DNA from: Clostridia bacterium
GTDB taxonomy: Bacteria; Bacillota; Clostridia; TANB77; CAG-508
Assembly: GCA_017404545.1 (NCBI GenBank)
Contig: JAFRCC010000006.1
Location: 8 to 64,007, forward strand
Direction: 5' to 3'
Length of the DNA stretch: 64,000 bases
In this document: piece after piece, positions 13,119 through 53,242 of the stretch
Layout of the letters: each line of letters begins with the position of its first letter
Numbering within the stretch: the first letter of the stretch is position 1
Notes under the pieces: generated by a model
What the model saw: the letters and a program-made list of their open reading frames with translations, nothing else
The model's database searches: none
What the model was told of the DNA's origin: nothing
Made by a program: the position numbers and the translations under genes

Positions 13119-13304
13119 TCTATATATCGTGGTGGAACTTTACTAGGAAAAACCAGTTGAATAAATCTCTCAAAGGTCTGATAAATCTAACAGCAAGAGG
13201 TGTAAGCCTCTGTTGTTAAATTTAATCAATCCTTTGATAATTCAATTTTGAAATTTTTTTGAAAATCTAGACGAAAACAACCAAACCATTAGGAGAATGA
13301 TAAA

Positions 13305-16945: not shown

Positions 16946-17077
16946 TCATAACAACTCTTTATAATAGGTTTCGGTTAATCGAGTAATTACTTCAGAAATA
17001 GTTTCACTATTATTTATTTTGCATTGCTCTAATTTGTTTTTTGTATTTTTTTTGAAAACTATTGTTTTTCTATTCAT
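16946..17077 (-). CDS. small ribbon-helix-helix-like protein (43 aa; possible antitoxin or regulator)
   Basis: MNRKTIVFKKNTKNKLEQCKINNSETISEVITRLTETYYKELL: beta-strand then two short helices. No gap before the 16538-16945 gene. Confidence 0.35.
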   Translation of the reverse strand: MNRKTIVFKKNTKNKLEQCKINNSETISEVITRLTETYYKELL

Positions 17078-17215
17078 ATTTTATAGATTTATTCTTTCAA
17101 GTTTTTAAATTATCGTTTTGTATAATTCAATAATAAGATTAATCCAACTCATTAACGAAATAAGGCGCTAAGTAATTATTAACCTTCAATAAGGTTGTTG
17201 TTTAATCTTCAGTTG

Positions 17216-36985: not shown

Positions 36986-39247
36986 ATGGCAGAAAATAAC
37001 TTAGATATCAATGTTAGAGCTAAAGCTGACAAAACCGAAGTAGAGGACTTGTCAGATGCAATAAATACTCTAAAAGAAAAAGACAATAATGTAGATATTG
37101 CCGTTAATGTTGATAATTCTGAAATTGATGATGCTGAAGAGTCTAGCGAAAATCTAAGCGATTCAATGGAAAATGCTTCAGATAGCGCTGATAATCTAAG
37201 TTCTTCAATAGGGAATGTTGATAGTTCACCTATCGATGACGTCTCAAGTTCCGCGGGAGATGCTGATGAGAATTTGGATAGCGCTAGCGGTTCTGCTGAA
37301 AATCTACAAGTCAGTATTTCAAATATCGACCCTTCAATTTTTGAACAATTAGTCGATTCAATAAGGGCGTCTGCTGAAGAGATGGAGAATTTAAAGAATA
37401 ATACTGACGACGCTAACACTAGCATGACTATGGTTGATGCTATGGCTAGTGCAACATTATCGGCTGGAGTAACTAGTGGGTTTATGTCCGCTTCAAATTC
37501 CGCCGGAAATTATACTGATACTATGGTTCGTTTAGGCTACGCATTGAGCGATACTAGTATGACTGCGGAACAAGCTGAACAAAGATACGGAAGTTTAATT
37601 TCAACTATGGTTTCTGAAACCGGTAGAGGTGCTGGAGCTGTACGTTCTCATTTAATTAGTTTAGGAAATGTAGGAATTACAAATGAGCAAATATTAAAAG
37701 ACAGTTTTGAAGGAATTTCTAAAGCGTCTTTTCAAATGGGTGAAAATCTCGAAACTATGGAGATGAAATTTCAAGCAATTGCACTCACTGGTATGGCAGG
37801 TAAAAGACAATTAAAGTCTTTTGGTCTTGAAACTAAAGATTTAGCTGACGTTATGGGAGTTTCTGTTGATGAGGTTTCAGATAAATTCAAGAATTTAGAT
37901 GCCGAGTCTAGAGCTTCAATTTTATCTACAGCTTTGAATATGAAATACGGTTCAGAAGTAACTGAAAATTACAAAAACAGTTATGAACATCTCATCGATT
38001 CTCTAAATAGGGCAAAAGATTATTTCATCAGAGTTGTAGGTGAGGCGTTATTACCTATTTTAATTCCGACTATTCAAAATACTGCAAATATTATCAATAC
38101 TCTAGCGGGAGCGTTTCGAGGACTTCCTGACCCAATCAAGGGAGTAATTGGTTCTGCTCTTAGTTTAGTTGCGGGAGTTACTGCTATTGGTTTGGGAATA
38201 TCAGCGACTACTAAGTTTATTTCAGCAGCGATTGGCCCTTTCCTCAAATTAGCTCAATCCGAGCGTGCCGTAGCGATAGCCCAATGGTTACTCAATGCGG
38301 CGATGGACGCTAACCCTATCGTGTTAATTACAATTGCGATAATTGCTTTAATTGCGATTCTAGCTTATTTGTATTTCAACAACGAACAAGTAAGACAAGC
38401 GATTGATAATTTAGGTCAAAGCTTTATTAACGCCGGTCAAATAATCTATTCTAGCGTTTTAAACTTTGTAAATTGGGTAGTTAGTCAATTACAATTTCTT
38501 TATAATTATATTATGACTTTAGGCGGTTTATTAGATTCCAACGTTTCAATTACGGGAAATAATATTATAGATAGCGTTATAGCAGTCATGTATTTTATTG
38601 CAACTTTGCCTTATCAATTATCGGTTATTTTCATTAATATGATTGCTAAAACTTTGGGCTTTGGGAATAACTTTGTTCAAAGAATGTTTAGTGCTGGATT
38701 AAATTCAGTTACTAGATTTATGGGTCAAATAACAACCCTTCCGTCTAGATTTATGACTGAATTAAATAAAATGTTATCGGCGGTTAATACGTGGGCGTCT
38801 ACTTTGCCTGCTAAATTTTGGGAAGCGGGAGTAAACGCTGTTAAAAACTTCTTATCAGCATTAGGAATTAATTCTCCCGGAACTATGCAAAAGAAATTGA
38901 TTAAAGAGATGGAAGATACCGGCTCAAGAATACCAATTGCTAGTGAAGGAATTATCAAAAACTTAGGAGTTGTTGCTAAAAACGCTGTTAAATCCTTTGG
39001 AAATCCTAAATTTGATGTAGGATTTAATACGGGTGATTTAAATGAGATAAAATCCGGTAATTTAGAGATATCCAATACCAGTTTATTAGAGTTATTATCA
39101 TCTAGCGGTAATAACGGCAATGGAAAAACAATTAATCTTACTCTAAATGTCGGTACTGTTGATAAAAGGGAGAGAGTTGATGAAATTATTGATGCTGTTC
39201 GTGAATATTTCTTATGGGATAATACAACAGCAGGGAGGACTGTATGA
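36986..39247 (+). CDS. tail tape measure protein
   Basis: 753 aa with an acidic N-terminal region, central hydrophobic TM segments (VIGSALSLVAGVTAIGLGI...IVLITIAIIALIAILAYLYF), and a position typical of tape measure proteins. Confidence 0.7.
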   Translation: MAENNLDINVRAKADKTEVEDLSDAINTLKEKDNNVDIAVNVDNSEIDDAEESSENLSDSMENASDSADNLSSSIGNVDSSPIDDVSSSAGDADENLDSASGSAENLQVSISNIDPSIFEQLVDSIRASAEEMENLKNNTDDANTSMTMVDAMASATLSAGVTSGFMSASNSAGNYTDTMVRLGYALSDTSMTAEQAEQRYGSLISTMVSETGRGAGAVRSHLISLGNVGITNEQILKDSFEGISKASFQMGENLETMEMKFQAIALTGMAGKRQLKSFGLETKDLADVMGVSVDEVSDKFKNLDAESRASILSTALNMKYGSEVTENYKNSYEHLIDSLNRAKDYFIRVVGEALLPILIPTIQNTANIINTLAGAFRGLPDPIKGVIGSALSLVAGVTAIGLGISATTKFISAAIGPFLKLAQSERAVAIAQWLLNAAMDANPIVLITIAIIALIAILAYLYFNNEQVRQAIDNLGQSFINAGQIIYSSVLNFVNWVVSQLQFLYNYIMTLGGLLDSNVSITGNNIIDSVIAVMYFIATLPYQLSVIFINMIAKTLGFGNNFVQRMFSAGLNSVTRFMGQITTLPSRFMTELNKMLSAVNTWASTLPAKFWEAGVNAVKNFLSALGINSPGTMQKKLIKEMEDTGSRIPIASEGIIKNLGVVAKNAVKSFGNPKFDVGFNTGDLNEIKSGNLEISNTSLLELLSSSGNNGNGKTINLTLNVGTVDKRERVDEIIDAVREYFLWDNTTAGRTV

Positions 39248-40098
39248 GCTTTTTTAGTATAATTAGTGCTGAAGAAATTGATTATGGTTCTAGTCCAATG
39301 AATTTAAAGGTTATTCAAGGAACCGGTGTTGAGGTCATTCCTGATCTGAATATTAATGTTAATTCCCTCAATAACGGGAATAAATATTTCTTAAATAATG
39401 GATACGGTGGAATAACCTTCAAAATCGACGTTATAATCAATAAAAATGATATATTCACTACTTATAGGTCTGAATCAATTCCATTAACTTTTTCAATAAC
39501 AAATGGCGTAGGTTCTTACTTGGGCGGTGGAGTTCAAATTTCTCAAATCCGTACGTCAGTTATTGATAAATTACATGAGTGGATTACAACTATGACTCCG
39601 GTTTATGTCGTAACTGATGCAATTGATATTCCTAACGGAAGATATATCATTTCAAAAAACAGTAGCAGAAAACAAACTTATCGTGAAAATACTGTTTGGA
39701 CGTTGGAATTTACTGAATTTAAAGGAATTAACATCACTAAATATAAAAATGACAATAAATACGTTGATAAGGCTAAAAAGAATTACGCTAAAGCCAAAGC
39801 AAAAGCTAAAAAAGCTCAAAGTAAGAAGGCTAAGGCTAACAACGCAAACAAAAATAAGCTAAAAAAATGCAAATTGGCTAATCTGAAATATGGTCTTAAA
39901 AAGAGTAATTGTGTCAAATATATGCAAACGGTGTTATATAAGAAGGGTTATTTGACTAAAAAACAAGTAGACGGTTGGTTCGGGCCAATAACCAAGAATG
40001 CACTCAAAAAATTTCAAAAAAAGTATCAAAAGAAATACAAACTAAAAATCAATGGAAAAGTCGATAAGGCAACTTTAAAAGCATTAATAAACGTATAA
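39244..40098 (+). CDS. tail/baseplate protein with C-terminal peptidoglycan-binding-like (PG_binding_1) domain
   Basis: C-terminal LKYGLKKSNCVKYMQTVLYKKGYL...DGWFGPITKNALKKFQKKY...INGKVDKATLKAL matches the PG_binding_1 pattern. Confidence 0.5.
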   Translation: MSFFSIISAEEIDYGSSPMNLKVIQGTGVEVIPDLNINVNSLNNGNKYFLNNGYGGITFKIDVIINKNDIFTTYRSESIPLTFSITNGVGSYLGGGVQISQIRTSVIDKLHEWITTMTPVYVVTDAIDIPNGRYIISKNSSRKQTYRENTVWTLEFTEFKGINITKYKNDNKYVDKAKKNYAKAKAKAKKAQSKKAKANNANKNKLKKCKLANLKYGLKKSNCVKYMQTVLYKKGYLTKKQVDGWFGPITKNALKKFQKKYQKKYKLKINGKVDKATLKALINV

Positions 40099-40113
40099 TG
40101 GAGGTTAATATCA

Positions 40114-42462
40114 ATGGCAGTCGGAAGCGTTGTCGAGAAAGTGTATTATGATGTTAATCTCGTGCAAAACCAATCATTTATTTACGTTGGACGTATGAAA
40201 AACGCTAAGGCTATGGCTCTTAGTAAAGATTATTGGAATAATAGTATTACTATCTATTGGTCTAAATATCAAATTAAAGAAACGGACATGAGGCAAAAAA
40301 CCGCCTCCTTCACTAGTCCTCATTATTTTGATTTAACTAGCGGTTTACACTGCGTATTAATAACCTCACCTTATCACGAGGACTTCGGAGGCATCATATT
40401 ATCAGTAAGTTACGATAAATCAACCGGATTATATGAATACCAATGTCAAGATTTCAGTAGAAAATACCAAAGTAAATTTAACCTAATTTCAGTAAATAAC
40501 AATTTTTACGATTTATTAAGATTATTCCTCACTCAATTCGGTTGTAGTAACGGAAAAGGTAGAGTTTCAACAAGTAAATTAAAAAATTTCAAATATAACC
40601 TTACTGGATTGAGGCCTAAGCTTTATTACGACCAAGAAATTTGGGAAAATGGAATTAAATTTAATCCGATGACTTATACCAAACAAATGGTTTTCAAAGA
40701 CGTATCTTATATTGAGGCAATACGTGATTTAGTATTCAGTACCGGAGCATATATCGATGTATATTTCAATAAATACGGCGTACTACAAATACAACCATTT
40801 AGCAAACAAGATTGGTTAAGAAATGGTATTTATTTAACTACTCCTGAATTGGCTAGTAGGAAGTTCAAATTTGATACAACCAATATTATTACTGGAGTTG
40901 TAGTTAATTCTGAAGACCGTTTAAGTTCCGGACGTTACTATTCAAGTAATAAAATTGTAAGGCTAGACTTATCAGCATTTTTCGGTGATTTAACTACTAC
41001 AATTGATAACCCTAATAAATCTTCAAGTTCATCATCTACAAGCTCCGTTTCTACTAAAAAATCAACCAATACTAAGAAAAAAGAGGGAACCGGAATAACA
41101 GTTTTCATGAATATTGATAATATCCATTCTAAATCAAGAGATATGAAACTAATGAAGGATATTGCAGGATATCTCAAGAAAAGAGGTTATAAAGTAGAAA
41201 TCGGAGGTATCGGGCCAGGTTATCATTATTCCCAAATTAATCGTGTTAAGAAAAATGGAATTTATTTGTGTATTTACGGCGGTGCTTGTGCCGGAACTCT
41301 AAGAGAACATTGGACTAGTAACCATTACAAAAGCGTTCTTAAAAAGAAAAATGCTAAAATGGTAGTTGCATTTTTATCTCCGCCTAGTACCAATATTCAC
41401 AATTTAAAATGGTTACCTCGTGCTCATGATGATAATTTCAGTCCTAGAAGTTTTAAAGGTGTAAGTAATCCGGAAAAACAATTGTTGAATGCCGGAATTG
41501 GAGTTGTAATTGGTAAAAACGCTAAGGAAATAGCAACCAAATTCCCTAATTTTAAATCCTCAACCACTAAGAAAACTACAACTTCAGCATCTCCTATTAA
41601 CACTTCAACAGCTACCTATATCAATAATGAGATGACTAGTGCTCGAAATAGAATGACTGAAAGTATCCGTGATTTATTAAGCTTTAAATTAACATTACCT
41701 CTAGGAAATCCATTGTTAAAAAAATTACATACAAATATGTTTCTTTACACTGAATTACCGGACGAATTTGTTTTAGAGAACTTCTCAACAATAGCGGAAG
41801 TTTTAAACTCAACTTATAATCGTTACGTTGGTTATTCATTGAATAGATGGTATGTTGAAGCGGTTACTATTACTAATGATGGTTCTAAATTCGACGCTGA
41901 AGTTGAACTTAATCCGTTTCCTAGTAGCGTTAAAAAATATCGTGAAAGCAGAGTTAAATTGGAAGATGACTATAAATCAGCCTCCAAATCAACTAGTAAA
42001 AAATCAACCACCTCTACAAAAAATACTACTCTAAAAGGTGGAGAGGGCAAAACAATCGATAATCTTGTTAAAAAGATTATTGGTTCCGAAACCGATGATT
42101 TGAAAAAAGCTAAATTAATTCACGAATGGCTACGTAAAAACGTCAGATATGCTAGATATGAGTGTACTAAGTACAATACGCCGGAAAAATGTTATAAAAA
42201 TAGAAGGCATCTTAATTGTGCAGATACTGCAAGATTAACCGCTAGTATGATGAGAAGTGCAGGCTTAAAATGTTATGTCGTTCACCGTACTTATAACGGC
42301 GGTCATTTCTGGACTATTATTGAAATTAACGGTAAAAAGTACGCTAGTGATCAAACCGGCAACGGTTCAGCATTTAATACAGTATGGGCAAAATCCGGAA
42401 GGGTAAAAGTGTCTAACGGTGGAACTTATTCAAGGAAAAATGGAAAAGTTCCGGATTGTTAA
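40114..42462 (+). CDS. tail-associated (Tal/hub-like) protein with C-terminal transglutaminase-like cysteine peptidase domain
   Basis: C-terminal NCADTARLTASMMRSAGLKCYVVH...GHFWTIIEINGKKYASDQTG fits the transglutaminase-core Cys/His/Asp pattern. Ser/Thr-rich linkers. Confidence 0.55.
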   Translation: MAVGSVVEKVYYDVNLVQNQSFIYVGRMKNAKAMALSKDYWNNSITIYWSKYQIKETDMRQKTASFTSPHYFDLTSGLHCVLITSPYHEDFGGIILSVSYDKSTGLYEYQCQDFSRKYQSKFNLISVNNNFYDLLRLFLTQFGCSNGKGRVSTSKLKNFKYNLTGLRPKLYYDQEIWENGIKFNPMTYTKQMVFKDVSYIEAIRDLVFSTGAYIDVYFNKYGVLQIQPFSKQDWLRNGIYLTTPELASRKFKFDTTNIITGVVVNSEDRLSSGRYYSSNKIVRLDLSAFFGDLTTTIDNPNKSSSSSSTSSVSTKKSTNTKKKEGTGITVFMNIDNIHSKSRDMKLMKDIAGYLKKRGYKVEIGGIGPGYHYSQINRVKKNGIYLCIYGGACAGTLREHWTSNHYKSVLKKKNAKMVVAFLSPPSTNIHNLKWLPRAHDDNFSPRSFKGVSNPEKQLLNAGIGVVIGKNAKEIATKFPNFKSSTTKKTTTSASPINTSTATYINNEMTSARNRMTESIRDLLSFKLTLPLGNPLLKKLHTNMFLYTELPDEFVLENFSTIAEVLNSTYNRYVGYSLNRWYVEAVTITNDGSKFDAEVELNPFPSSVKKYRESRVKLEDDYKSASKSTSKKSTTSTKNTTLKGGEGKTIDNLVKKIIGSETDDLKKAKLIHEWLRKNVRYARYECTKYNTPEKCYKNRRHLNCADTARLTASMMRSAGLKCYVVHRTYNGGHFWTIIEINGKKYASDQTGNGSAFNTVWAKSGRVKVSNGGTYSRKNGKVPDC

Positions 42463-42881
42463 AGGAGGTTGAGTCATTTATGGAACAAATAGTAGAATTA
42501 GGAGCTGATTTAAACTGCAATTGGGAATTTAAAGACGGAGATTTACAAATTGTTGAAAATAAAGAGAATTTAGTTCAGGCAATTTTAAATCGATTAAATT
42601 GTTCATATGATAGTTTGGATTTGTTCTATTATGATTACGGTAGTGTAATATCCAATTTTCTAGGTTGGAAAAAGTCAGATAAAACTTTAGAGTTCATAAG
42701 ATTGGAAGTTGAAAACACTTTAGGTCAAGAACCTCGATTAAACAATTTTAACGTTGAAGTGTCCTATAAAAGTGATGGTAAAGTTTTAATCGAATTATAC
42801 GTTGTTTTTGATGATGAAACTGATTTAACTATGAGTTTAGTGTTAGAAAAAGGAGGCGAAGTCATTGCCACTGGAGAATGA
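42456..42881 (+). CDS. gp25/GPW-like baseplate wedge protein
   Basis: LVQAILNRLNCSYDSLDLFYYDYGS...LGQEPRL matches the GPW/gp25 pattern, including the EPR motif. Confidence 0.5.
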   Translation: MLKEVESFMEQIVELGADLNCNWEFKDGDLQIVENKENLVQAILNRLNCSYDSLDLFYYDYGSVISNFLGWKKSDKTLEFIRLEVENTLGQEPRLNNFNVEVSYKSDGKVLIELYVVFDDETDLTMSLVLEKGGEVIATGE

Positions 42882-44031
42882 AAGCTTTTATAATTTACTC
42901 GGAGATGAAATTTCACGTGAAAGTATCGTAGAAAAAATGATTGAATATTACAATCAGAAGCTCGAAATTGGGGAGACAAAAGTTACAGACTTCAACGAAG
43001 GTTCTGAAATAAGAAACCTCTTAGAATCCTTTGCTGTTGATTTATATGATTTGATGGAAGATAATTATGAGGCTACTAAAATTGCTTTTATTTCAACCGC
43101 TTACGGAGAATGGCTTGATTTACACGGGGAAAATCCATTAGTCAATTTAGCACGTGATACTGGTTCTGAAGCCGTTGGATTGGTAACTTTTACTATTCCC
43201 GATGCTAGAGCGGTTGATATTATAATTCCTGAAGAAACTATTTTGCTTTGTGAAGAAAATGATTTAGAATACATTACTGATTCAGAAGCAATCATAGTTT
43301 CCGGAGATACAAGCGTAGATGTTTATTGTACTTGCTTAACTGTTGGAGAGGACGGAAATTGTGGAGCAAATACAATAACTACAATTGATGATGATAATAT
43401 TGATGATACTGTTGAAGTAAACAACCCCGAAGCTTTTAGTGAAGGTAGCGACTATGAGGAAGATGACGAGTACAGAGAACGTCTTTTAAGTGCTATTAGA
43501 ATTGATAATTTCGGCAGTATTGGTTATTATCAAGAGTTAGGAACTAATATTGACGGAGTTCATGACATTTTACTAATCGAAGATGAAACATATACTCGTA
43601 AAATCCTTGTAAACGGAGATGAAAAACCCGTCTCTGATGAAGTTCTAGTGAATGTTTTAAAAGAGTTCACCCGACCGGAAAATATAGTGTTGGGGCACAA
43701 TTTTATTGTTGATTCTCCGGATTATCTGACTTTAAATTTGAATTTAGATTTGATAGTTGAATATGAATTTGAAGATGAATTAATTATCGATAGATTAAAC
43801 TCATTTTTCAACGGCGGTATAACTAGCGACGGTTATGATTTCAGCGGTTGTTTTATCGGTGAGAATTTAAATGAAACTCATTTATATTCTTGTTTGGAAA
43901 GCTTAGATGGAATTATAAGAGCCTCTGCAACAACCGATGAAGATGCTCCTTTAAGTTCTCTAACTGTTAATAGTAACGAAGTCATAAAACTCGGTGAAAT
44001 TACAATTAATCAGACAATTTATGAGGAATAA
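42865..44031 (+). CDS. baseplate J-like protein
   Basis: 388-aa ORF directly after the gp25-like gene, matching the W-J order of Mu/P2-type baseplates. Confidence 0.4.
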   Translation: MPLENESFYNLLGDEISRESIVEKMIEYYNQKLEIGETKVTDFNEGSEIRNLLESFAVDLYDLMEDNYEATKIAFISTAYGEWLDLHGENPLVNLARDTGSEAVGLVTFTIPDARAVDIIIPEETILLCEENDLEYITDSEAIIVSGDTSVDVYCTCLTVGEDGNCGANTITTIDDDNIDDTVEVNNPEAFSEGSDYEEDDEYRERLLSAIRIDNFGSIGYYQELGTNIDGVHDILLIEDETYTRKILVNGDEKPVSDEVLVNVLKEFTRPENIVLGHNFIVDSPDYLTLNLNLDLIVEYEFEDELIIDRLNSFFNGGITSDGYDFSGCFIGENLNETHLYSCLESLDGIIRASATTDEDAPLSSLTVNSNEVIKLGEITINQTIYEE

Positions 44032-44039
44032 GAGGTGAA

Positions 44040-44513
44040 ATGATGTCTAATTATGGAGAGGAAATTTTAGATAGATTACCTGAAAATTCTAACTTGAAAA
44101 TAAGCAATAATCCGGCTCGTAAAGTTATTGATTATACTTTAGGTGAATGGTTAGACAATTTTGTAGATGAAGATATTTTTGAGGAATTGTTTTTAAATGA
44201 GTCTAAAGGAAGGTATATTGATTGCCACGGTCGAGAATATGGAGTTTATCGTAAGCTCAATGAAAGCGATGACGATTACAAAAGACGGATTATTTATCAA
44301 ATTATGGGTCATTTAACCGTCGATTATTTGATTAATATTTATGGTGTTGATTTATACGTAAATATTCCAAATTATAATCCTAATTCTAATGTATTAACTA
44401 GTGATAATTATTATATTCACGGGGAAAATGGATTTATGGCGTCCGCTGATGAAATTACTAAATCAATATTGAATAAGAAATTTGTTTTGGGAAGTGGTAT
44501 TAGATGGCTTTAA
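44040..44513 (+). CDS. baseplate/tail protein (gpI-like by position)
   Basis: ORF. Confidence 0.25.
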   Translation: MMSNYGEEILDRLPENSNLKISNNPARKVIDYTLGEWLDNFVDEDIFEELFLNESKGRYIDCHGREYGVYRKLNESDDDYKRRIIYQIMGHLTVDYLINIYGVDLYVNIPNYNPNSNVLTSDNYYIHGENGFMASADEITKSILNKKFVLGSGIRWL

Positions 44514-44707
44514 GTCCGTATTTTACTGATGAGGAATTGATAAGTCAAATCAGACTTCAATTTGATTATGAGGATATGTGGGATATTGATTTTACTACTA
44601 TTTTTCAAACTATTGAAGATATAGGAGATTATTTTAGTCTTAATTTTAGAAATAGGTGTTTCCGTATTGATAAGATTACGGGAATTGTTATTGAGGTGGA
44701 ATCATGA
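44504..44707 (+). CDS. hypothetical small tail protein
   Basis: ORF. Confidence 0.25.
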   Translation: MALSPYFTDEELISQIRLQFDYEDMWDIDFTTIFQTIEDIGDYFSLNFRNRCFRIDKITGIVIEVES

Positions 44708-46530
44708 GCTTTTTAACCGTCGAAGATGTAAATTCAACCCTAATAAAATATCATAATATCAACCTATTTCATACAATAAACACTAGAAATATCGATATAG
44801 ATGAGTTTGAAGGGGTAAAATATGATTTTTGCATCGTAAATCATGGTATTAGTGGTAATAACCACACCTTTGAGTTCAATATTGTTAATAGTAATTGGAC
44901 GGGCGCTTATTACTTTTTAGATGAAAATGACAATTATTTAGATTTAGACGCTACATATGACAGTAACGATAATGTTTTAACATTTACTACCACCCACGAA
45001 AGCGTAAAATTGATTTTATATTGTTCTAGTCTTGCCGATGAGTTTAATATTGTTAGATTAACTTGGAGACCAATCTCACTTAATACTCTTGTAACTTCAT
45101 CTATTGAAAATATAATTGAAGATATTCCAGTTATGAGTTTGAATAATGAAGATTTATACGGTAAAAGATATGTAATTCAAAATACTAATGAAACTCACGG
45201 AGAATATTTCAATTTAAATAGTGATAATCAGCCTACATTTGCCCAAACGGCAAATTCTAATTCTAATAAAACTGCAATAAGTTATAACGGAGCTAAATTT
45301 TACTATGATTGTTTTGTTAAAAAGATTGCTCCAAATATTGAAATTAACAACGATTTAACAGTGGGGAAAATAAACCGTGTAGAATTATCAGTTTCTTATG
45401 ATCTTACTGACGTAAATAATGTTATCTCAATACCTTCTTTGGCCGGATATGTTTATTATGAAGATAAAACAATCCCGATTCAATTAGACTCAAATACTGG
45501 GAACTATTATTTTGATTTAGATTTATTGGAAAAATCTAATAATAATCACGTTAAATTGTCATTAGAGATTTTAGAAACGGATTATGTTCAAGGAAAACTT
45601 TATAATTTCGTTATAGCCTCTGAATATGTTTCTGTTGATAACGTTTCTGACTTTATTAGGGAGCTCGGAAGTAATGGTTGTAAGATTATCGAGCTAGCAA
45701 ATGACTTTACTTTGTTTGATGACGTTACTGTTTATCATGATATAATTATATACGGTAAAGACCATTCATTGAATTTAAACGAACATTCTTTTATTTTAAA
45801 CGAGGGTTTGACTTTAAAAGTAAATAAGATATCCTTTAATAACGGGGACAACGCCATTATTCAAAACGATAATACAAATTTAGAACTAACTGATTGTACT
45901 TTTTACAATTGTAAATCTAGGAACTATAACAATATAGGTTCTTGTATTTTCTGTGATGTGAACTTGGAAAGTTTGTCTGTCGATGATGATTTCACTACTA
46001 ATTTGTATAATTGTACCTTTATCAACAATCATTCAGCGATTCTACACGGAGGACAATTAACAGTAGATAATTGTAAATTCCTCAACAATATTTTAGAGGT
46101 TGTTGATATGAATAATCCGGCGTTCCTTTATCAAGTAAGCGGGGACGCTTCAATTTCAAATAGTATTTTTGATATTGATTATTCAAATAAAAATGGATTA
46201 TGTACTAATAGTCAAAATATTGGTTTTGCTCAAGCCTTATTCATGTGCGGTCAGTTAGCAACAATTAACAGAGCTAATTATACTTATTTACAATCCGATG
46301 ATACTTTACCATTCTTCGAATCACCTTATAACAATAAAGCTCATTTATTCGTGAAATATTATTATTCCCAAATTAGCGCTTGCGTATTTGCTAGTCCCGT
46401 TCTTAATTATGAAGATAAATCTTGTTGTCATGCAGTTAGCGGGGTTGATTGGGTTTTCAAAAATAATGTTCAAATTACTCGTGCAGACTGGGAAAGTGAG
46501 AATAATATAAATAAAATTGATTGGGAGTGA
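44704..46530 (+). CDS. tail fiber/spike protein with right-handed parallel beta-helix repeats
   Basis: Repeated N-x-T/C motifs typical of beta-helix/pectate-lyase-like folds (LTDCTFYNCKS, NCTFINNHSAILHGGQLTVDNCKFLNN). Confidence 0.5.
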   Translation: MSFLTVEDVNSTLIKYHNINLFHTINTRNIDIDEFEGVKYDFCIVNHGISGNNHTFEFNIVNSNWTGAYYFLDENDNYLDLDATYDSNDNVLTFTTTHESVKLILYCSSLADEFNIVRLTWRPISLNTLVTSSIENIIEDIPVMSLNNEDLYGKRYVIQNTNETHGEYFNLNSDNQPTFAQTANSNSNKTAISYNGAKFYYDCFVKKIAPNIEINNDLTVGKINRVELSVSYDLTDVNNVISIPSLAGYVYYEDKTIPIQLDSNTGNYYFDLDLLEKSNNNHVKLSLEILETDYVQGKLYNFVIASEYVSVDNVSDFIRELGSNGCKIIELANDFTLFDDVTVYHDIIIYGKDHSLNLNEHSFILNEGLTLKVNKISFNNGDNAIIQNDNTNLELTDCTFYNCKSRNYNNIGSCIFCDVNLESLSVDDDFTTNLYNCTFINNHSAILHGGQLTVDNCKFLNNILEVVDMNNPAFLYQVSGDASISNSIFDIDYSNKNGLCTNSQNIGFAQALFMCGQLATINRANYTYLQSDDTLPFFESPYNNKAHLFVKYYYSQISACVFASPVLNYEDKSCCHAVSGVDWVFKNNVQITRADWESENNINKIDWE

Positions 46531-46538
46531 ATAGAAAA

Positions 46539-48122
46539 ATGTATTTTTCAAATATTAATAATCCGGAGTTAAAACAATTTCATAAAGTTATCCCTTATAA
46601 TTTCAATATGAGTTTAACAGACGCTTTATCATCTGATTTGTTCTATATTGAAACAGTAATTCCTAATTCAATATATCGTATTTATTTACTGTTTTATTGT
46701 GATAAAATAACTTCTAGTAACGTTAATGATGTGATTTTGGAAAATAAATGTATTATCTGTAATAAGACTAGTGAAGAAACCTATTTTAATTTCGTTTCTA
46801 ACGATAATGATAAGTTTATCTTAAATCAAAAAACCGGATACTACTCATTTGAGGATACTTTAAGCGATGAGGATTATAACGCTATTGTTCAGTTATTGAG
46901 AGCAAATAATTCTTTTGAAGAAAATATCCAAATTAATAACAGTATTGTAAACGGAGATTATGGAACTTATATTTTCAATCTAAAATCAACTACTATCGTT
47001 GATAATGGAGTTTTGATCACTAACGAGACATTATCTAGTATAGGTACTGTTAAACTAATGAGCCCTACATTTAAAAACAGCAGTTATCAATTAAAATTAA
47101 CAGTATACAGTTTATCCGACGTTAATGTTTGTAATGAGTCTAATGATGATAATATTGAAAAAACTGAACTAATAATTGATTTAGTTGAAGGTTCAGAGGT
47201 AAATATTCCTTTTAATACCTTAGATTTGAATTGTATTGTAGGATTTAACGCCGTTGTTAATATTGCTCATGATTTACCCGTTATCACTTATTCTCAAGAT
47301 ATAATTTTAACTAGCGATAAATCACAGTGCGTTATTGGAGATACTCTCAATTTAAACGCTTTATACTTGGAAGATGATTCTCCATTGGAAAATGAAGTAA
47401 TTACCTTTAAAAACGGAACTGAAATATTGGGAACTGGAACAACCGATTCTAACGGGATTGCAAATTTCCAATATACAATTTTAAACGATTCTACATTGAA
47501 TATTGTTGCAATTAACAGTGCAGGAAAGATTATTTCAAATAATATAGAAATAGATGTATCTAATAAACTAAGTACCATCTCTTTGGAAGTTTCTAAAAGT
47601 CTTGTTAATGTAGGTGATGTAGTCGTTATTTCCGGTTATCTTCTTAGTGGTTCAGAACCATTATCAAATTATGAAGTTAAAATCTTAAACGGTGATGAAT
47701 TATTTGTAAATCGTACAACCGACGCTAACGGAAGATATTATATAAATTTAAGTGTTGGTAACGTATTAGATTATGATTTAAAAGCTGTTTTTGATGGGGA
47801 TTCAACATATAGTAGCTCTCAAAGTCAATATGTTCACGTCAGAAGCGCTAAATTAGCCGTTAGTTTTCAAGCTATTAGGTGGGGTATAACTGAATACGCA
47901 TTTATTACTGGAAAAATGATTTCTTCAGATGGTAATTTATTAACTAATGCCCCTATCTCTATTTATTGGAAGGGCTCGTCTTATGAAGATGTTTCTGAAA
48001 CTAGAACTGCTACTGACGGAACTTTTGCCGGAAGGCGTCTTAGTAATGGGCAAATTGAATATATTGTTGTTGTATTTGAGGGAGACGAAACTCACCAACC
48101 AGTTACAGCAGTTTGGGGGTGA
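46539..48122 (+). CDS. tail fiber / adhesin-like protein with Ig-like repeats (ATG 46539 preferred over TTG 46521)
   Basis: RBS GGGAGTGA. Repeated Big-like segments (e.g. VISGYLLSGSEPLSNYEVKILNGDELFVNRTTDANGRYYINLSV). Confidence 0.45.
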   Translation: MYFSNINNPELKQFHKVIPYNFNMSLTDALSSDLFYIETVIPNSIYRIYLLFYCDKITSSNVNDVILENKCIICNKTSEETYFNFVSNDNDKFILNQKTGYYSFEDTLSDEDYNAIVQLLRANNSFEENIQINNSIVNGDYGTYIFNLKSTTIVDNGVLITNETLSSIGTVKLMSPTFKNSSYQLKLTVYSLSDVNVCNESNDDNIEKTELIIDLVEGSEVNIPFNTLDLNCIVGFNAVVNIAHDLPVITYSQDIILTSDKSQCVIGDTLNLNALYLEDDSPLENEVITFKNGTEILGTGTTDSNGIANFQYTILNDSTLNIVAINSAGKIISNNIEIDVSNKLSTISLEVSKSLVNVGDVVVISGYLLSGSEPLSNYEVKILNGDELFVNRTTDANGRYYINLSVGNVLDYDLKAVFDGDSTYSSSQSQYVHVRSAKLAVSFQAIRWGITEYAFITGKMISSDGNLLTNAPISIYWKGSSYEDVSETRTATDGTFAGRRLSNGQIEYIVVVFEGDETHQPVTAVWG

Positions 48123-48126
48123 ATAA

Positions 48127-50799
48127 ATGAGTAAAAGAACCTTAGCTGATGAAATGATAACTTTAATTCAAAGTGAATCAAATAACAATCCCGCTCCTAA
48201 ACCCTGCAAAATAGTTGGCAATTATGGAACTAATCCTTATTGCGACGTAGAAGTTGAAGATTTAGGTAAATTAATCCATAAAAAAACAATAGGCAGTACA
48301 GAAATAGGTTCAGAAGGTATTATTTGCTTTTTAAACGGAGATTTAAATCAAGGAATTGTAATAACTCACGATGAAACAGCTCCAATAATTGAATGGTTTA
48401 ATCAAAATAATATAATCGATTTATTGTACTATCTCGAAAATTACGGTAAAAAGTCAGATAAATCCTATTATTTGTTTAGAGGTGATTGTTGGACTATTAA
48501 CAATAATTTCGAATCTAGCGCCTCAATTACTAGTAAAACCGACAAGGATTTTACCGTTACTGGAACATTCCGAACTAGAAATGATATTGTAGGTATTTAT
48601 TGGAACTCGGAAGATGTTATTCAACACCCGTATATCAGTTATGGTTCTATAACTGATTATTCTGACGTAATCTTAGAGTTTGATTATGAAATGAGCGGTT
48701 GTAAAGATTTTTCTAATGGAGTTATAAGTATTACTGTCGGAATGAATGACGGTTCAACATATTATATGACTATGAACCGTTTTATTGAAGATAATCATGT
48801 TACTCTTGATTTTAATAATCTTACTTTACTAGCTGGAAATGTTTATATTGATTCTGAAGGTGAGGAAATAGAGATTACAGAAACAACTCCCTTAGACGTA
48901 ACTGATGTAAAATATATTATGTTTGTTATAGTTCCTTCTAACTATGTAGAAAACAAAGAACAATATACAATTATTAGAAATACGGACTTTACTTGTAAGA
49001 TAAGCAATATTGAAGTTACTAATGGTGAAATTTGTAAAGAGTATATACCGTTAGACCCTCAAGAATATCGATTGTGTGAAGGTTATGACGATTTTTATGA
49101 TTTGAACCCTTATAGAGTTTGTAGGGAAATGAGGAAACTAGGATATGTAAATTGGATTGATTTATATATCGGCGCCTCTCATTTTTACGAAAAAAGCGGG
49201 ACTGTTGGAGATTTAATAACTATATCTGAAACTTTGAATCATACTCAAACAGAAAAAATGGTTTTAAATCAAAAAGTACCCTTGAATAGAGCTTTTACTA
49301 CTTGGTTGGATTGTTATTCTCGTGAATTAAAAGCTAACGGTAGTGATAAGCTTGTTGTTAGTGTATCTATGGAGAATTTGCAGTGCCCTACTAGTTGGAG
49401 ACAAAAAGCCTGTAATGGAAATTACGCTTTAACCGGTTGGGTTCCCTCTACTTTCTTTTATAGTCCTTGTAATCCGGAAGTATTGTCTTATATGCAGTCC
49501 GTTAGTGAAGCTTGTCTTGATATAGTTGTAGCTAATGATTTACAACCTATTCTTCAGATGGGTGAGGCTTGGTGGTGGTGGAATGAAAACGATAAACCTA
49601 ATCAACCGCCTTGTTTTTATGACGATTCTACTAGAAACAGTTATTATAAAGAGTTCGGTGAGAATATTCCGGAATATTCGTCATCTTGGGAAAATTACGA
49701 TAATAAACTCACTTCTTGGCTCAATAAACAATTAGTTAAATATAGTGATGGGTTAAGAGAGGTTGTAAAAGATTCTAAGTATAAAAACGGCTTGTATATG
49801 GCTTTATTTTTCCCTCCTTCCGTTACTGATGTTGATAGGGTTCCGGCTATGATGAGAGAGGTTAATTTTTTGAAAGATGCTTATACTCCTTTGAAATTAG
49901 ATGTTTTACAGCTAGAAGATTATGATTGGGTTACTGGCGAGAGCGTACATCATGATGAAGTCTACTCGTTAGGTCAAGAATTAGGATTTAGTGAGGATAG
50001 ATTACATTATTTTGGAGGTTTTGTTCAGTATCCTGAAGATGCGCCTAAGTTTTGGAATTTAATCTCTAAATCAATGGAAACTGCAATAAATAAGAAATTT
50101 AAAGAAGTCTTTGTTTGGGCGGGTTCTCAAGTAAGACGGGACGGAAAATTCATAGGTCATTACGCTTATGAGCTAATACAAAGATTGTTAGATAAAATTC
50201 CGGACGTTAAAGCTTATGATGATTCTGATTTGGTTTCTAGAATAACTAGTGCTGAAGGACAAATTACTACGATGGGAGGGCGAGTTTCTACTTTAAATGG
50301 AGAATTAACTACTCTAGACGGCAAAGTAACTACTTTAGAAGGTCAAGTATCAACTTTAGATGGAGAACTGACTACTTTGGAGGGTCAAGTTTCTACTTTA
50401 GATGGTGAAGTAACAACCTTAGAAGGTCAAATAACACCAATAGTTGATAGTGGGTGGGTTAATTTGAGTTTAACCGGTAATTTTTACAATTTTGATTCTA
50501 CTAATAGTGTAAAATACCGTAAATATGGAAGTGAGGTTCAAATTACTGGACTTCCAGTGTTAAATGCCTATCCTTCTGCGCTAACTGAATTAATCATTGG
50601 AACGTTGCCTAGTGGTTTTAGACCAATCCGTGACGTATCTTTTGTTTGTGAGTTAAAAGACGATGATAAGCTGTGGACTTGTACCGTAAAGTCTAACGGA
50701 GAGGTTACTTTCAACCGTTTGAGAGATAATACTGGTTTTGTTGCCGGAACTGCTTTTGCAGACGTTTTAAAATTAAATGTTAATTTCTTAATTGACTAA
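48127..50799 (+). CDS. large tail fiber protein with trimeric coiled-coil stalk and C-terminal receptor-binding-like head
   Basis: 890 aa containing seven TLxGxxT heptads and a central Trp-rich region (GEAWWWWNEND). Confidence 0.55.
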   Translation: MSKRTLADEMITLIQSESNNNPAPKPCKIVGNYGTNPYCDVEVEDLGKLIHKKTIGSTEIGSEGIICFLNGDLNQGIVITHDETAPIIEWFNQNNIIDLLYYLENYGKKSDKSYYLFRGDCWTINNNFESSASITSKTDKDFTVTGTFRTRNDIVGIYWNSEDVIQHPYISYGSITDYSDVILEFDYEMSGCKDFSNGVISITVGMNDGSTYYMTMNRFIEDNHVTLDFNNLTLLAGNVYIDSEGEEIEITETTPLDVTDVKYIMFVIVPSNYVENKEQYTIIRNTDFTCKISNIEVTNGEICKEYIPLDPQEYRLCEGYDDFYDLNPYRVCREMRKLGYVNWIDLYIGASHFYEKSGTVGDLITISETLNHTQTEKMVLNQKVPLNRAFTTWLDCYSRELKANGSDKLVVSVSMENLQCPTSWRQKACNGNYALTGWVPSTFFYSPCNPEVLSYMQSVSEACLDIVVANDLQPILQMGEAWWWWNENDKPNQPPCFYDDSTRNSYYKEFGENIPEYSSSWENYDNKLTSWLNKQLVKYSDGLREVVKDSKYKNGLYMALFFPPSVTDVDRVPAMMREVNFLKDAYTPLKLDVLQLEDYDWVTGESVHHDEVYSLGQELGFSEDRLHYFGGFVQYPEDAPKFWNLISKSMETAINKKFKEVFVWAGSQVRRDGKFIGHYAYELIQRLLDKIPDVKAYDDSDLVSRITSAEGQITTMGGRVSTLNGELTTLDGKVTTLEGQVSTLDGELTTLEGQVSTLDGEVTTLEGQITPIVDSGWVNLSLTGNFYNFDSTNSVKYRKYGSEVQITGLPVLNAYPSALTELIIGTLPSGFRPIRDVSFVCELKDDDKLWTCTVKSNGEVTFNRLRDNTGFVAGTAFADVLKLNVNFLID
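50284..50430 (+). repeat. 7 x 21-bp tandem repeat inside the tail fiber gene, encoding the heptad stalk
   Basis: gtttctactttaaatggagaa / ttaactactctagacggcaaa / gtaactactttagaaggtcaa ... read directly. Confidence 0.8.
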
Positions 50800-50813
50800 A
50801 AGAGCTGATAAAT

Positions 50814-51800
50814 ATGATAAAGAAAAGCGAAATTAAGCTAATTGCTGAAAAAATCAAAGAATATGTAGAAAAAAATAAGGAAATACCCAATTCAATAGAA
50901 GTAAATAAGAAAAAATACTCAAAAACCGAGTGTTTATACATTTTAGGATATGCTATTGATCATCTAAATGAAAATTTTGATTTTAAAAGCGGTAAAGTAG
51001 CAAGTAATCCTGTAATTACTGTCATTAATGAAGATATTTATGAGTCTGATTATAAAGACCAATCTAAAAGATTATGCCAATATTTAAATCAAAACGGTAA
51101 AGCTCCGAATTACATTAAATCAGTTAAATCCTCAACTAAGATTTCGCCGGATTTGGAGTTGTACGCTTTTGCTAAAATAATCGATTATTATTACAAAAAT
51201 AAAAGATTGCCTAATTATTGCAATTATAATTCTAGCGTATTGGCTAGCGTTAAGTCCAGTAAAAACAATTGCAGTAATCCTTATAAATCATCTCCTCACC
51301 CTACTAAAAAGGGTTGCGATGCTATGGGTCAAAATACTGGTTATTTTTGTGCAATTTGTGCACTGCAACATTCTTTATTCAAATTCGGTATCTACGTTTC
51401 TCAAAGCCAATTAGCAAAATGGGCGGGGACAACTAGCTCCGGAACTTCTCATCAAGGAATCCGTACTGCCGTTGCAATGGTAAACAGTAAATATCACGTT
51501 AATATTTCCGTAGATGAGAAAAACTTCAGTGATTTAGGTTTAGAAGGGTTGGCAAAACTTATCTGTAAAAGTAACGTTGATGTGATAATTCATTTGTTAT
51601 ATCGTCTTAAATACGGTCATTATGAGTCAATTAACGAAATTGACGTGAAAAATAAGATGTTTAAGATTTTAAACTCACTTGGAAACAAATGCTCTGGTGG
51701 TTGCTATTGCGGTTACGTTGAGGATAGATCATTAGCTGTAGAAAAATCATATATCGGTGGAATTAGTCAGAAATCCATCATTATTTTAACTAAAAATTAG
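50814..51800 (+). CDS. pei: pseudomurein endoisopeptidase (Pei-like lysin) with two N-terminal pseudomurein-binding repeats
   Basis: Two PMBR-like repeats (IKLIAEKIKEYVEKNKEIPNSIEVNKKKYSKTECLYILGYAI; LCQYLNQNGKAPNYIKS...LELYAFAKIIDYYYKNKRLPNYCNY). C-terminal Cys/His peptidase-like domain (GYFCAICALQHS...HLLYRLKYGHYESIN). Start in GAGCTGATAAATATG. Confidence 0.75.
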   Translation: MIKKSEIKLIAEKIKEYVEKNKEIPNSIEVNKKKYSKTECLYILGYAIDHLNENFDFKSGKVASNPVITVINEDIYESDYKDQSKRLCQYLNQNGKAPNYIKSVKSSTKISPDLELYAFAKIIDYYYKNKRLPNYCNYNSSVLASVKSSKNNCSNPYKSSPHPTKKGCDAMGQNTGYFCAICALQHSLFKFGIYVSQSQLAKWAGTTSSGTSHQGIRTAVAMVNSKYHVNISVDEKNFSDLGLEGLAKLICKSNVDVIIHLLYRLKYGHYESINEIDVKNKMFKILNSLGNKCSGGCYCGYVEDRSLAVEKSYIGGISQKSIIILTKN

Positions 51801-51808: not shown

Positions 51809-51997
51809 ATGAACGTTATTGTTAAAAAAATACATGAAATCCATTTAGATTATCAACAAAGGCAAGTTTCTAAGTTGTATAAGTCAGAAGGATTAACAAA
51901 AAGAGTCTTAAATAAGCAAAGAAAGATTAATGAAAAAAGAAATGAGCTAGATTTACCTGATAGGTATGAGAGGCAATATAAAAGGTTTGTACAATGA
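51809..51997 (+). CDS. hypothetical basic protein
   Basis: ORF with RBS AGGTGAAAATATG. Confidence 0.35.
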   Translation: MNVIVKKIHEIHLDYQQRQVSKLYKSEGLTKRVLNKQRKINEKRNELDLPDRYERQYKRFVQ

Positions 51998-52278
51998 ATA
52001 TTTTAGTTTTGATTAAAGAATTAGATTCTACGCCTTTAGATAGGGAAATAAGAAACGGAGGAGGTCATGGTGATATAATTAGTTTCTATAATGAAACTGG
52101 TAATGACTATGATTTAATCATAGAGGGTGTTGAATATTCAAGAGTAGTTCAGGCATGTGTTATTTTTAAAGACCGTTCTTATTATCTCTACATTCAACAC
52201 GGTGAAAATCCTAACTTAATTAAGTTAGATGTAGATAGTATAGAAGAAATTAATTGTATTCCGTCATTAGTTGAATAA
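51994..52278 (+). CDS. hypothetical protein
   Basis: ORF. Confidence 0.35.
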   Translation: MNILVLIKELDSTPLDREIRNGGGHGDIISFYNETGNDYDLIIEGVEYSRVVQACVIFKDRSYYLYIQHGENPNLIKLDVDSIEEINCIPSLVE

Positions 52279-52369
52279 CTCCCTCCCGTATTTTTGAATA
52301 AAAATATTTAAAATGTATAAAAACAAATTTATACCCATATTGCTATCAAAATATGCGCGAGGGTCAATT

Positions 52370-53242
52370 ATGAAAAACACTAAAAAGCTGATATTGCTAT
52401 TAGTATTGTCTATTTTTCTTGTGGGTATGTTGATGGGGTCAGCAACAGCAACTCATACAGTTAAAGTAGGTAAATATACTGGAACAATATCGGATAATGA
52501 TTATAAAAAATTACAAAATGCTAAAAGTAAAAATAAGGATTGTTCCGTTCTTAATGTTAAATCTAATAATAAAGGATATAGTATGGCAATTTACTATAAC
52601 ACCTTTTCGGGTTATGAGCCAATGTCCGGAATTACATTTGAAAAAGGATTTTTGGGTAGTGTATGGAAAAACGGTGAAGAATCTCCGATAATTGCTTATA
52701 AAAAAGCCACTATATCATCTAAAACCACAACAAATACTAAAAAAAATACTGTTTACACAAAACCACATACTTACAATCTGGGAGGATATAAAGTAACAGT
52801 TTCAGCTAAACAATATACTCAATTGAAGAAACATAAGAATACAAATACTTTATATATTGCTTATAAGAATATTGGCAATAAAAATGTTAAAGTTCCTAAG
52901 TATAAGACTGTGAAAAAGAAAGTATGGGAGACTAAATTAGTATTGGATGAAAAATTAGTTTATAGTTCCGATTGGTCTGATTCTACTTGGTATGAATATC
53001 ATGCTGATAGATACAGTAAAGCCGGTTGGAAATATTATGGAAGTAAAACTGTAGAATCCAATAATGGCCATGTTATTAAATATTATCAGAAATATAAAAA
53101 ACAAGTAACTAAAAACGTTAAAGTTAAAAATGGTTATAAAACGGTTAAAGTTCCAATTAAAGCTGAAATTTGGTCTAATGGAATGTATAAATTATATGAT
53201 AAGAACGGATATTTCTATAAATCCGGTAAAGTAAATATTTAA
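52370..53242 (+). CDS. secreted Lys/Tyr-rich protein (start at ATG 52370; the ORF track extends it to 52313)
   Basis: Signal/TM helix MKNTKKLILLLVLSIFLVGMLMGSATA. C-terminus K/Y-rich like 4439-5728 and 55374-56384. Confidence 0.5.
   Translation: MKNTKKLILLLVLSIFLVGMLMGSATATHTVKVGKYTGTISDNDYKKLQNAKSKNKDCSVLNVKSNNKGYSMAIYYNTFSGYEPMSGITFEKGFLGSVWKNGEESPIIAYKKATISSKTTTNTKKNTVYTKPHTYNLGGYKVTVSAKQYTQLKKHKNTNTLYIAYKNIGNKNVKVPKYKTVKKKVWETKLVLDEKLVYSSDWSDSTWYEYHADRYSKAGWKYYGSKTVESNNGHVIKYYQKYKKQVTKNVKVKNGYKTVKVPIKAEIWSNGMYKLYDKNGYFYKSGKVNI

Follow-up and report, generated by a model that had tools for sequence, protein, structure and literature searches.

A transglutaminase-fold domain on the predicted tail-tip hub of a Methanobrevibacter provirus that also encodes a separate PeiR-type lysin

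Bacteriophages are well known to bear wall hydrolases on the hub or the Tal protein of the tail, and pseudomurein endoisopeptidases of the transglutaminase-like kind are established as exit lysins; among these, PeiW and PeiP target in pseudomurein the epsilon(Ala)-Lys isopeptide bond. To our knowledge, the only wall enzymes described for viruses of methanogens are the exit lysins PeiW, PeiP and PeiR. PeiW and PeiP possess a Cys-His-Asp triad homologous to that of transglutaminases (PMC2989375), and an enzyme assay for their type of cleavage under reducing and anoxic conditions has been described (PMC4592898). PeiR, from the Methanobrevibacter ruminantium provirus phi-mru, lyses M. ruminantium and combines pseudomurein-binding repeats (PMBR) with a C39-like domain (PMC6189367); PeiR-like lysins have been reported to be typical of the viruses of animal-gut methanogens (PMC11375127). 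The step of virus entry through the walls of archaeal hosts was called unknown in a 2024 review (PMC10791045). Among bacteriophages, the hub of phage 812 bears a CHAP "cleaver" domain, which has zymogram activity and is pushed into the wall at the tip of the tube (PMC13433997). Here we compare with these systems a predicted Methanobrevibacter provirus, contained in a window of 64,000 nucleotides of contig JAFRCC010000006.1 (positions 8 to 64,007 of the forward strand; all coordinates below are those of the window), with emphasis on a large tail protein that ends in a transglutaminase-like domain.

A first-pass annotation of the window had recognized a PG_binding_1 domain on a tail protein, a transglutaminase-like peptidase domain on a larger protein downstream of it and a lysin with pseudomurein-binding repeats. 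All three domain calls (PG_binding_1, transglutaminase-like, and PMBR together with a cysteine peptidase) were recovered in the same places, and as their scores lie above the curated Pfam cut-offs, none of them is a chance match. The boundaries of the three open reading frames (ORFs) likewise remain as annotated, namely 39244-40098 (284 amino acids, aa), 40114-42462 (782 aa) and 50814-51800 (328 aa), and each of the three domains is conserved in hundreds of metagenomic homologues. After the head genes, the + strand of the window encodes first a tape measure protein, next the 284-aa and then the 782-aa protein, and beyond these a gp25-like sheath initiator, a Baseplate_J protein, fibre-like proteins and the lysin. 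The reading favored here, to which we assign a probability of roughly 0.6, is that a provirus with a myovirus-type baseplate encodes an entry enzyme at the tail tip, in the form of the C-terminal domain of the 782-aa protein, and a separate PeiR-type lysin for exit.

The central hub and its transglutaminase-like domain

The AlphaFold2 (AF2) model of the 782-aa protein (predicted local distance difference test score, pLDDT, 83.5) comprises four domains, here termed D1 to D4. Foldseek searches with this model recovered alignments of about 610 columns that span both D1 (aa 17-303; 40162..41022) and D3 (aa 497-626; 41602..41991), with matches to the hubs of AlgoCIS (7aef_q), diffocin (8v3w_H), phage 812 (9euf_E) and phage Mu (gp44, 1wru) and to VgrG at E-values of 2e-10 to 7e-9, and a total of 34 matches with E<=2e-5 to phage, tailocin, extracellular contractile injection system and type VI secretion system hubs. 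D1 and D3 are thereby modelled as the first and second halves of a gp27/VgrG-like fold, and the gene is placed between those for the tube initiator and the gp25 and J proteins. The protein, which had been annotated as Tal-like, is on the strength of its modelled fold better described as a myovirus-type central hub of the T4 gp27/Mu gp44/VgrG kind than as a siphovirus Tal. Ratios of nonsynonymous to synonymous substitution rates (dN/dS) of 0.02-0.20 over all four domains, at dS values near saturation, indicate strong purifying selection.

The C-terminal domain D4 (aa 636-782; 42019..42459) is a transglutaminase-like cysteine peptidase domain by Pfam, by profile comparison with the PDB and by Foldseek. 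Its match to Transglut_core (PF01841) covers aa 650-738 with an E-value of 1.2e-11 (45.2 bits against a cut-off of 23), accompanied by a match to DUF553 (E 4e-7), which bears out the earlier placement of such a domain at the C-terminus of the tail-tip protein and apart from the lysis enzyme. A search of the PDB with the single sequence of the hub C-terminus gave nothing useful and a family profile was required, which recovered four significant matches: the peptide:N-glycanase PNGase (2f4m, 1.9e-7), an uncharacterised bacterial transglutaminase-like cysteine protease (3isr, 2.1e-7), PeiW (8jx4_A, 4.6e-7) and a second pseudomurein endoisopeptidase (8z4f_B, 7.7e-5). In all four the nucleophilic Cys and the His are aligned. 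Foldseek in turn matched D4 to the transglutaminase 4xz7, again to 3isr, and to CPR-C4 (7pjo), at E-values of 1e-4 to 2e-3. In an alignment of 19 D4 sequences, which reach down to 22% identity to the window protein, invariance is limited to the columns N701-C702, H731, G740 and D746. They contain the full candidate triad anticipated by the first-pass annotation, C702 (codon at 42217-42219), H731 (42304-42306) and D746 (42349-42351), with the codons confirmed in the DNA. D4 has a dN/dS of 0.04-0.20 and looks like a catalytically competent Cys-His-Asp domain of the transglutaminase fold.

Between D1 and D3 is inserted D2 (aa 322-480; 41077..41553), which the AF2 model and weak Foldseek matches to generic flavodoxin-like folds, including 1y80 and type II dehydroquinases, suggest to be an alpha/beta domain of that kind, and for which Pfam gives no match at E<=1. 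It is the most conserved domain of the hub (dN/dS 0.02-0.03), with D335 (41116-41118), G390 and D439 (41428-41430) invariant and H371 (41224-41226) nearly so. An assignment of D2 to GATase1/DJ-1-like hydrolases with a G-x-C-x-G nucleophile elbow was considered and rejected, as conservation of C392 does not extend to wider alignments. Among 1.84 billion representative proteins, a profile search delineated a D2 family of 319 clusters, the named members of which come from Methanobrevibacter and Methanosphaera only. It occurs at the C-terminus of adhesin-like proteins of the Big-repeat and beta-helix kinds that are encoded among housekeeping genes, and it often adjoins transglutaminase domains. 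In the host protein P0427, Big repeats and D2 occur together with three blocks of PMBR and with a transglutaminase domain, which the hidden Markov model (HMM) of the viral D4 matches at 3.6e-22, and a siphovirus-type Methanobrevibacter provirus encodes at the Tal position a protein of 1057 aa on which D2 is likewise found with a transglutaminase domain. The two domains are thus companions in three virus lineages and also in PMBR-bearing surface proteins of the host, and as PMBR is a validated pseudomurein-binding repeat, the pair is tied to the wall by association. P0427 is an example of the TG-type (group III) adhesin-like proteins known from Methanobrevibacter and Methanosphaera, which possess Big repeats, PMBR and a C-terminal transglutaminase domain (PMC11532034); these share with the hub the transglutaminase domain and, in the example of P0427, also D2, but they are surface proteins encoded on the host chromosome and not parts of a virion.

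The predicted architecture of the hub is reminiscent of gp110 of the Staphylococcus phage 812 (Kayvirus), where a gp27-like hub forms the channel at the end of a contractile tail and bears additional domains that include a cysteine peptidase of the papain superfamily (PMC13433997); the structure of gp110 is among the top fold matches of the window hub. The two differ in several respects. The predicted enzyme of the provirus has a transglutaminase fold with Cys-His-Asp, whereas that of phage 812 is a CHAP domain with Cys-His-Glu, and its presumed substrate is archaeal pseudomurein. Its additional domain is an alpha/beta insertion common to adhesin-like proteins of methanogens, in contrast to the saposin-like clamp of phage 812, and no separate spike or weld genes were seen between its hub and gp25 genes. 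The pairing of gp27 with the gp5 lysozyme in T4 provides a looser likeness to the hub and its enzyme.

The predicted exit lysin and the recurrence of the hub domain

The lysin had been taken for an enzyme of the transglutaminase fold like the hub domain, a claim that its catalytic domain does not sustain. Its N-terminal region (aa 1-150; 50814..51263) contains two stretches of PMBR (Pfam E 8e-15), and the rest (aa 155-326; 51276..51791) is a PeiR-type domain of the Peptidase_C39-like kind, not C71 (PMC6189367). The Pfam match to Peptidase_C39 covers aa 173-277 (E 3e-5; 24.3 bits, with the cut-off at 22), and comparison with the PDB recovered 22oc_A, "P210 WT", at 2.1e-33, with the motifs around the candidate nucleophile C179 (51348-51350) and around H269 (51618-51620) aligned. 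The 705 homologues of the lysin mostly combine PMBR with C39. By its architecture, two N-terminal PMBR followed by a C-terminal C39-like peptidase of clan CA, the lysin appears to be of the PeiR and not of the PeiW/PeiP (C71) type, and it differs from PeiR in being encoded by a provirus with a myovirus-type baseplate. Since C39 is not transglutaminase-like, D4 is left as the only transglutaminase- or PeiW-like domain in this provirus. Some relatives of the lysin (P0294, P0297, P0299 and the product of 11482-13248 in locus L033; about 572-588 aa) have, before PMBR and C39, an N-terminal region matching DUF4015, a "putative glycosyl hydrolase", at 1e-5 to 1e-3, near or below the cut-off; these longer forms may be bifunctional pseudomurein lysins. 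Next to the lysin gene no obvious holin was seen, the two small ORFs right after it (51809-51997 and 51994-52278) appearing hydrophilic, and a 309-aa protein with an N-terminal hydrophobic segment is encoded directly after the lysin at 52313-53242.

The distribution of the hub domain was followed in 30 related loci from IMG/VR and genomes, 26 of which contain a complete hub region. The D4 HMM detects the transglutaminase domain in 23 of these 26, and two more have a sub-threshold match to Transglut_core. The hub is a single fused protein in 13 of the 26 loci and is split in 13 (L003, L014, L016-L023, L025, L028 and L029, with the hub region at about 9900-12450 in most) into a D1+D2 gene followed by a D3+transglutaminase gene, the two being adjacent or slightly overlapping and the break falling exactly after D2. 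Homologues of about 490 aa might be mistaken for hubs devoid of the peptidase, an interpretation that was rejected, as the D3+transglutaminase part is there encoded by a separate adjacent gene. In seven loci with the hub transglutaminase domain (L002, L006, L014, L016, L019, L020 and L022) the lysin is of the C39, PeiR-type kind. In L012 it is instead a PeiW-type Peptidase_C71 (PF12386, E 1.9e-11), and the transglutaminase domain of the hub is kept. Judged from these loci the exit enzyme appears to be exchangeable and the tail-tip enzyme not; as the type of lysin swaps while the hub domain stays, the pattern fits two different jobs. The proposal of a virion-borne entry enzyme distinct from the lysis enzyme is in this way strengthened by the recurrence of the domain in 23 of 26 loci, by its retention across the C39/C71 exchange and by its presence on the protein that an unrelated provirus of the siphovirus type encodes at the Tal position.

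The sole record in a phage collection to match D4, at 31% identity, is vir080 (BK063677; Caudoviricetes sp.), a virus of human-gut Methanobacteriales. In vir080 the gene for the transglutaminase protein comes directly after the gene at the tube-initiator position and before that of a D2-bearing protein, and the catalytic domain of its lysin is 45% identical to that of the window. Unlike in the window, its transglutaminase domain resides on a separate protein of 355 aa, annotated as hypothetical, and its protein at the tube-initiator position (160 aa) is devoid of PG_binding_1. A further match to the domain is seen in the tape measure of the siphovirus-type Methanobrevibacter provirus mentioned above (L033, 3-1640), which matches the transglutaminase-domain HMM over 68 residues at 3e-11 and recalls those bacteriophage tape measures that contain embedded wall-hydrolase motifs.

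The tube initiator and its PG_binding_1 domain

The gene for the 284-aa protein directly follows that for the tape measure (36986..39247; a weak Pfam match to TMP_2 and PHROG tape-measure families at E-values down to 3.6e-17), which anchors the order tape measure, tube initiator, hub. In its AlphaFold model (pLDDT 85.5) aa 1-160 form a beta-rich region, from which a long helix rich in Lys and Ala leads to a C-terminal domain of three helices. Foldseek matched the first region (39244..39723) to diffocin 8v3w_G, pyocin R2 6u5b_g, E217 8eon_A and phiCD508 9g8s_S, as well as to the Alg7/Pvc7-type chains 7aeb_M, 6j0n_b and 9qgl_7A, and fold matches in BFVD were to proteins labelled "contractile injection system tube protein N-terminal domain" and "DNA circulation N-terminal". 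Because this N-terminal fold, a tail-tube fold, is that of the tube initiators of contractile systems and of viral tube-domain proteins, the earlier label of a tail protein stands and can be refined: the model points to a baseplate tube initiator of the T4 gp48/gp54, Pvc7 type. A tblastn search with the whole protein gave no match.

The linker (aa 161-214; 39724..39885) is rich in Lys and Ala, with a helix predicted at aa 172-193 at low confidence, and has a K+R content of 28%. The C-terminal PG_binding_1 domain (PF01471, aa 224-281; 39913..40086) is matched over positions 5-57 of the 57 of the Pfam profile with an E-value of 1.9e-12 (47.6 bits against a cut-off of 23), and its helices at aa 222-233, 248-260 and 275-283 conform to a three-helix prediction. 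The region also matches the cell-wall-binding regions of endolysins in PHROG. It contains the stretch DGWFGPIT, and 30 of 32 aligned relatives retain a DG-aromatic-aromatic-G-x-x-T motif, in line with the D-G-hydrophobic-hydrophobic-G-x-x-T pattern of the family as described for KZ144-type endolysins. The core of the domain is thus preserved, as the first-pass annotation had supposed, and the domain is found in nearly all of 198 homologues in a family that is widespread in Methanobrevibacter proviruses.

Two roles are conceivable for the domain in a host without murein. The position that it occupies is that which a LysM-like domain takes in bacterial tube initiators. PG_binding_1 and LysM are unrelated folds with the common property of binding wall glycans. 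In PVC, AFP and AlgoCIS the tube initiator closes with a LysM-like domain, which attaches to wedge and sheath initiator and thereby stabilises the baseplate; in PVC the domain of Pvc7 contacts Pvc12 and Pvc4 and stabilises the interface of baseplate and trunk (PMC12546770). The 284-aa protein resembles these Pvc7/Afp7/Alg7-type initiators in having an N-terminal tail-tube fold followed by a small C-terminal domain of an otherwise wall-binding family (PMC12546770), and differs from them in that this domain is a three-helix PG_binding_1 and not LysM, that a long Lys-rich helix joins it to the tube domain, and that the host is an archaeon. The domain might accordingly be a structural part of the baseplate, which replaces the LysM-like grip on wedge and sheath initiator and never touches the wall, a role to which we would give nearly even odds. 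The tube-initiator fold of the first 160 residues with its matches to Pvc7/Alg7-type chains, the precedent of the LysM-like domain of Pvc7 in making baseplate contacts (PMC12546770) and the resemblance of the helix at aa 172-193 to the C-terminal helical handle of the phage 812 tube initiator, which runs along the hub (PMC13433997), speak for it, as does the retention of PG_binding_1 in nearly every relative whatever else changes, as for a core structural part. On the other hand, the replacement of LysM at the same site by an unrelated fold that binds wall glycans is a hint at the importance of binding, 30 of the 32 relatives retain the consensus binding motif, and the linker is not only long and Lys-rich but also variable in length, with the spacing between the tube domain and the DG motif ranging from 77 to 103 aa among relatives.

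Alternatively, PG_binding_1 could have been retargeted to pseudomurein or to another wall polymer of Methanobrevibacter, so as to anchor the tail tip during penetration, as the first-pass annotation had suggested; this remains a tentative second choice. The Pfam score well above the cut-off, the conserved motif, a host that is a pseudomurein archaeon and not a bacterium, the wide distribution of the family in Methanobrevibacter proviruses and the adjoining hub with its wall-directed domains are all compatible with retargeting. The validated pseudomurein binder is PMBR, and this virus uses it on its lysin. A literature search gave no paper tying PG_binding_1 to pseudomurein, and the position of the domain has the structural precedent mentioned above (PMC12546770). 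The adaptation to pseudomurein put forward earlier is not supported. As far as sequences permit a judgment, the structural role is rated slightly above wall binding.

A proposed entry route, its alternatives and the provirus

The observations on the hub and the lysin suggest a route of entry and exit along the following lines. The central hub would form a channel of the gp27/VgrG type into which D2 is inserted, with the D4 peptidase tethered at the C-terminus, where other systems have a spike or an enzyme; were the hub trimeric, as the analogy with phage 812 implies, three peptidase domains would be placed at the tail tip. Contraction of the tail would drive the hub into the wall, and D4 would locally cleave peptide cross-links of pseudomurein so that the tube can pass, a principle of entry shared with the CHAP "cleaver" that the hub of phage 812 bears and with the gp5 lysozyme of T4. 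The PG_binding_1 domain of the tube initiator might hold the core of the baseplate together or help to keep the tail tip on the wall. At exit the PeiR-type endolysin would lyse the cell from within. By analogy, the system is best read as an archaeal variant of the hub-borne lysins of bacteriophages.

Several observations weigh against this route. D4 has no match to Pfam Peptidase_C71 (PF12386) at E<=0.1, and because that profile is not reached, it is classified, so far as profiles allow, as a distant relative and not a member of the PeiW family; by profile comparison with the PDB it is about as close to PNGase and 3isr as to PeiW. D4 shares with PeiW and PeiP (Peptidase_C71; PDB 8jx4 and 8z4f) a transglutaminase-like Cys-His-Asp domain and an origin in viruses of Methanobacteriales, but these are soluble endolysins, whereas D4 is predicted to be part of a structural protein of the virion, and Pfam detects no PMBR on the hub. 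The hub of one locus, L026, is without a transglutaminase domain detectable by HMM or Pfam. Finally, the predicted contractile (myovirus) type of the baseplate depends on the gp25-like sheath initiator (42456-42881; weak Pfam matches to Sheath_initiator and GPW_gp25, and a PHROG baseplate protein at 7.8e-11) and the Baseplate_J wedge protein (42865-44031; Pfam 3.4e-26, and a PHROG baseplate family at 2e-50). The contractility of the tail would hence have to be read from these baseplate genes, as the 344-aa protein encoded at the position of the sheath gene (34856-35890) has as its sole match Phage_sheath_1 at 0.009, which lies below the Pfam cut-off, and gave no match in PDB, PHROG or NCBIfam.

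A more ambitious version of the proposal holds that the tail tip is a penetration device specific to pseudomurein and assembled from parts of host surface proteins, in which D2 would be a new Methanobacteriales-specific wall-binding or second hydrolytic domain acting together with a D4 endoisopeptidase, and PG_binding_1 would be retargeted to pseudomurein. This we regard as doubtful; if true, it would provide the first virion-associated pseudomurein hydrolase, a new family of wall-targeting domains and a second pseudomurein-binding module besides PMBR.

It is also conceivable, though unlikely in our estimate, that D4 does not cut the wall at all, and acts as a true transglutaminase forming cross-links between virion and wall or among virion proteins, as a maturation protease of the tail, or as an amidase on some other substrate such as a surface glycoprotein. 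The fold family does include cross-linking transglutaminases as well as PNGase, the latter being the top profile match, the hub lacks PMBR, and the surface proteins of Methanobrevibacter with transglutaminase domains have been classed as adhesin-like and not as lytic (PMC11532034). Against this, solved structures of pseudomurein endoisopeptidases are among the four significant profile matches, with the nucleophile aligned, the closest relatives in the host have PMBR blocks beside the transglutaminase domain, and in being placed at the tail tip, across two types of tail and three lineages, the domain agrees with known hub- and Tal-borne lysins (PMC13433997). Proteins of the contig, which measures 115,102 bp, are deposited at NCBI as "MAG: Clostridia bacterium", where MAG denotes a metagenome-assembled genome (MBQ3407944, MBQ3407988 and MBQ3408001; for instance window 9957-11936, 50814-51800 and 58103-59113), but the idea that the element is a Clostridia prophage whose PG_binding_1 simply binds ordinary murein is most improbable in view of the archaeal MCM helicase and the pseudomurein-binding repeats of the element, the origin of every named relative in Methanobrevibacter, and flanking housekeeping proteins that fall in clusters at >=90% identity with Methanobrevibacter gottschalkii or Methanobrevibacter sp.

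These flanks set in at about 58 kb of the window, from where Methanobrevibacter housekeeping genes continue onward with products that share 90% identity or more, up to full identity, with Methanobrevibacter proteins, and the closest genomic relatives of the hub are in Methanobrevibacter MAGs from the guts of goats and other ruminants. Because the flanking housekeeping proteins cluster with Methanobrevibacter, a Clostridia identity of the contig was rejected and the label is taken as a binning error; the contig looks like one of Methanobrevibacter that was mis-binned into a bacterial MAG. The gene content of the window is that expected of a provirus, here one apparently residing in a Methanobrevibacter chromosome: it includes an integrase (3178-4290), the archaeal MCM helicase (9957-11936), a large terminase (25219-26598), a portal protein, an XkdF-type protease and a capsid protein. 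At the nucleotide level the region had no match in the phage collection.

Among the other tail genes, the first-pass annotation had passed over a fibre-like protein of 890 aa (48127..50799), although it lies within the span of 39244-51800 to which that annotation referred. It comprises a TIM barrel of the N4 gp64/gp65 type (Pfam TIM-barrel_NCTSP 5.6e-70 and NCTSP_N 1.6e-14; PDB 9lc0_M, Gp64, 1e-28), a type designated "non-contractile tail sheath", a coiled coil of the P22 gp26-like kind (4lin) and a C-terminal head domain; its PHROG match is to a "tail sheath and receptor binding protein", and its first ~100 residues alone are common to the fibre genes of related loci. It is a probable receptor-binding protein, possibly directed at glycans, and may constitute a fourth surface-directed module. 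Elsewhere in the window, a Fic/DOC protein with a MarR-type helix-turn-helix is encoded at the left edge (844-1863) and two Big-domain proteins at 4439-5728 and 55374-56384. Within the provirus, on the - strand at 16538-20197, a gene for an N6 DNA methylase/MmeI-like protein and one for a type I specificity subunit lie in a region of reversed GC skew and lower GC content, and are probably restriction-modification cargo.

What is new in the provirus is the combination of a transglutaminase-fold peptidase domain on the tail-tip protein of an archaeal virus with a methanogen-specific domain common to host adhesin-like proteins and a PG_binding_1 domain in the LysM position of a tube initiator. 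A literature search found no description of this combination, in a survey that did not extend to the methanogen-virus compendium of Medvedeva et al. 2023, which may mention these domains. A conserved and, judging from its sequence, probably active cysteine peptidase at the tail tip in several lineages of Methanobrevibacter viruses offers a concrete candidate for the entry step. The D4-type domains, which are diverse and devoid of PMBR, would add to the few candidate anti-methanogen enzymes for use in the rumen, and D2 and PG_binding_1 are candidates for new pseudomurein-targeting modules.

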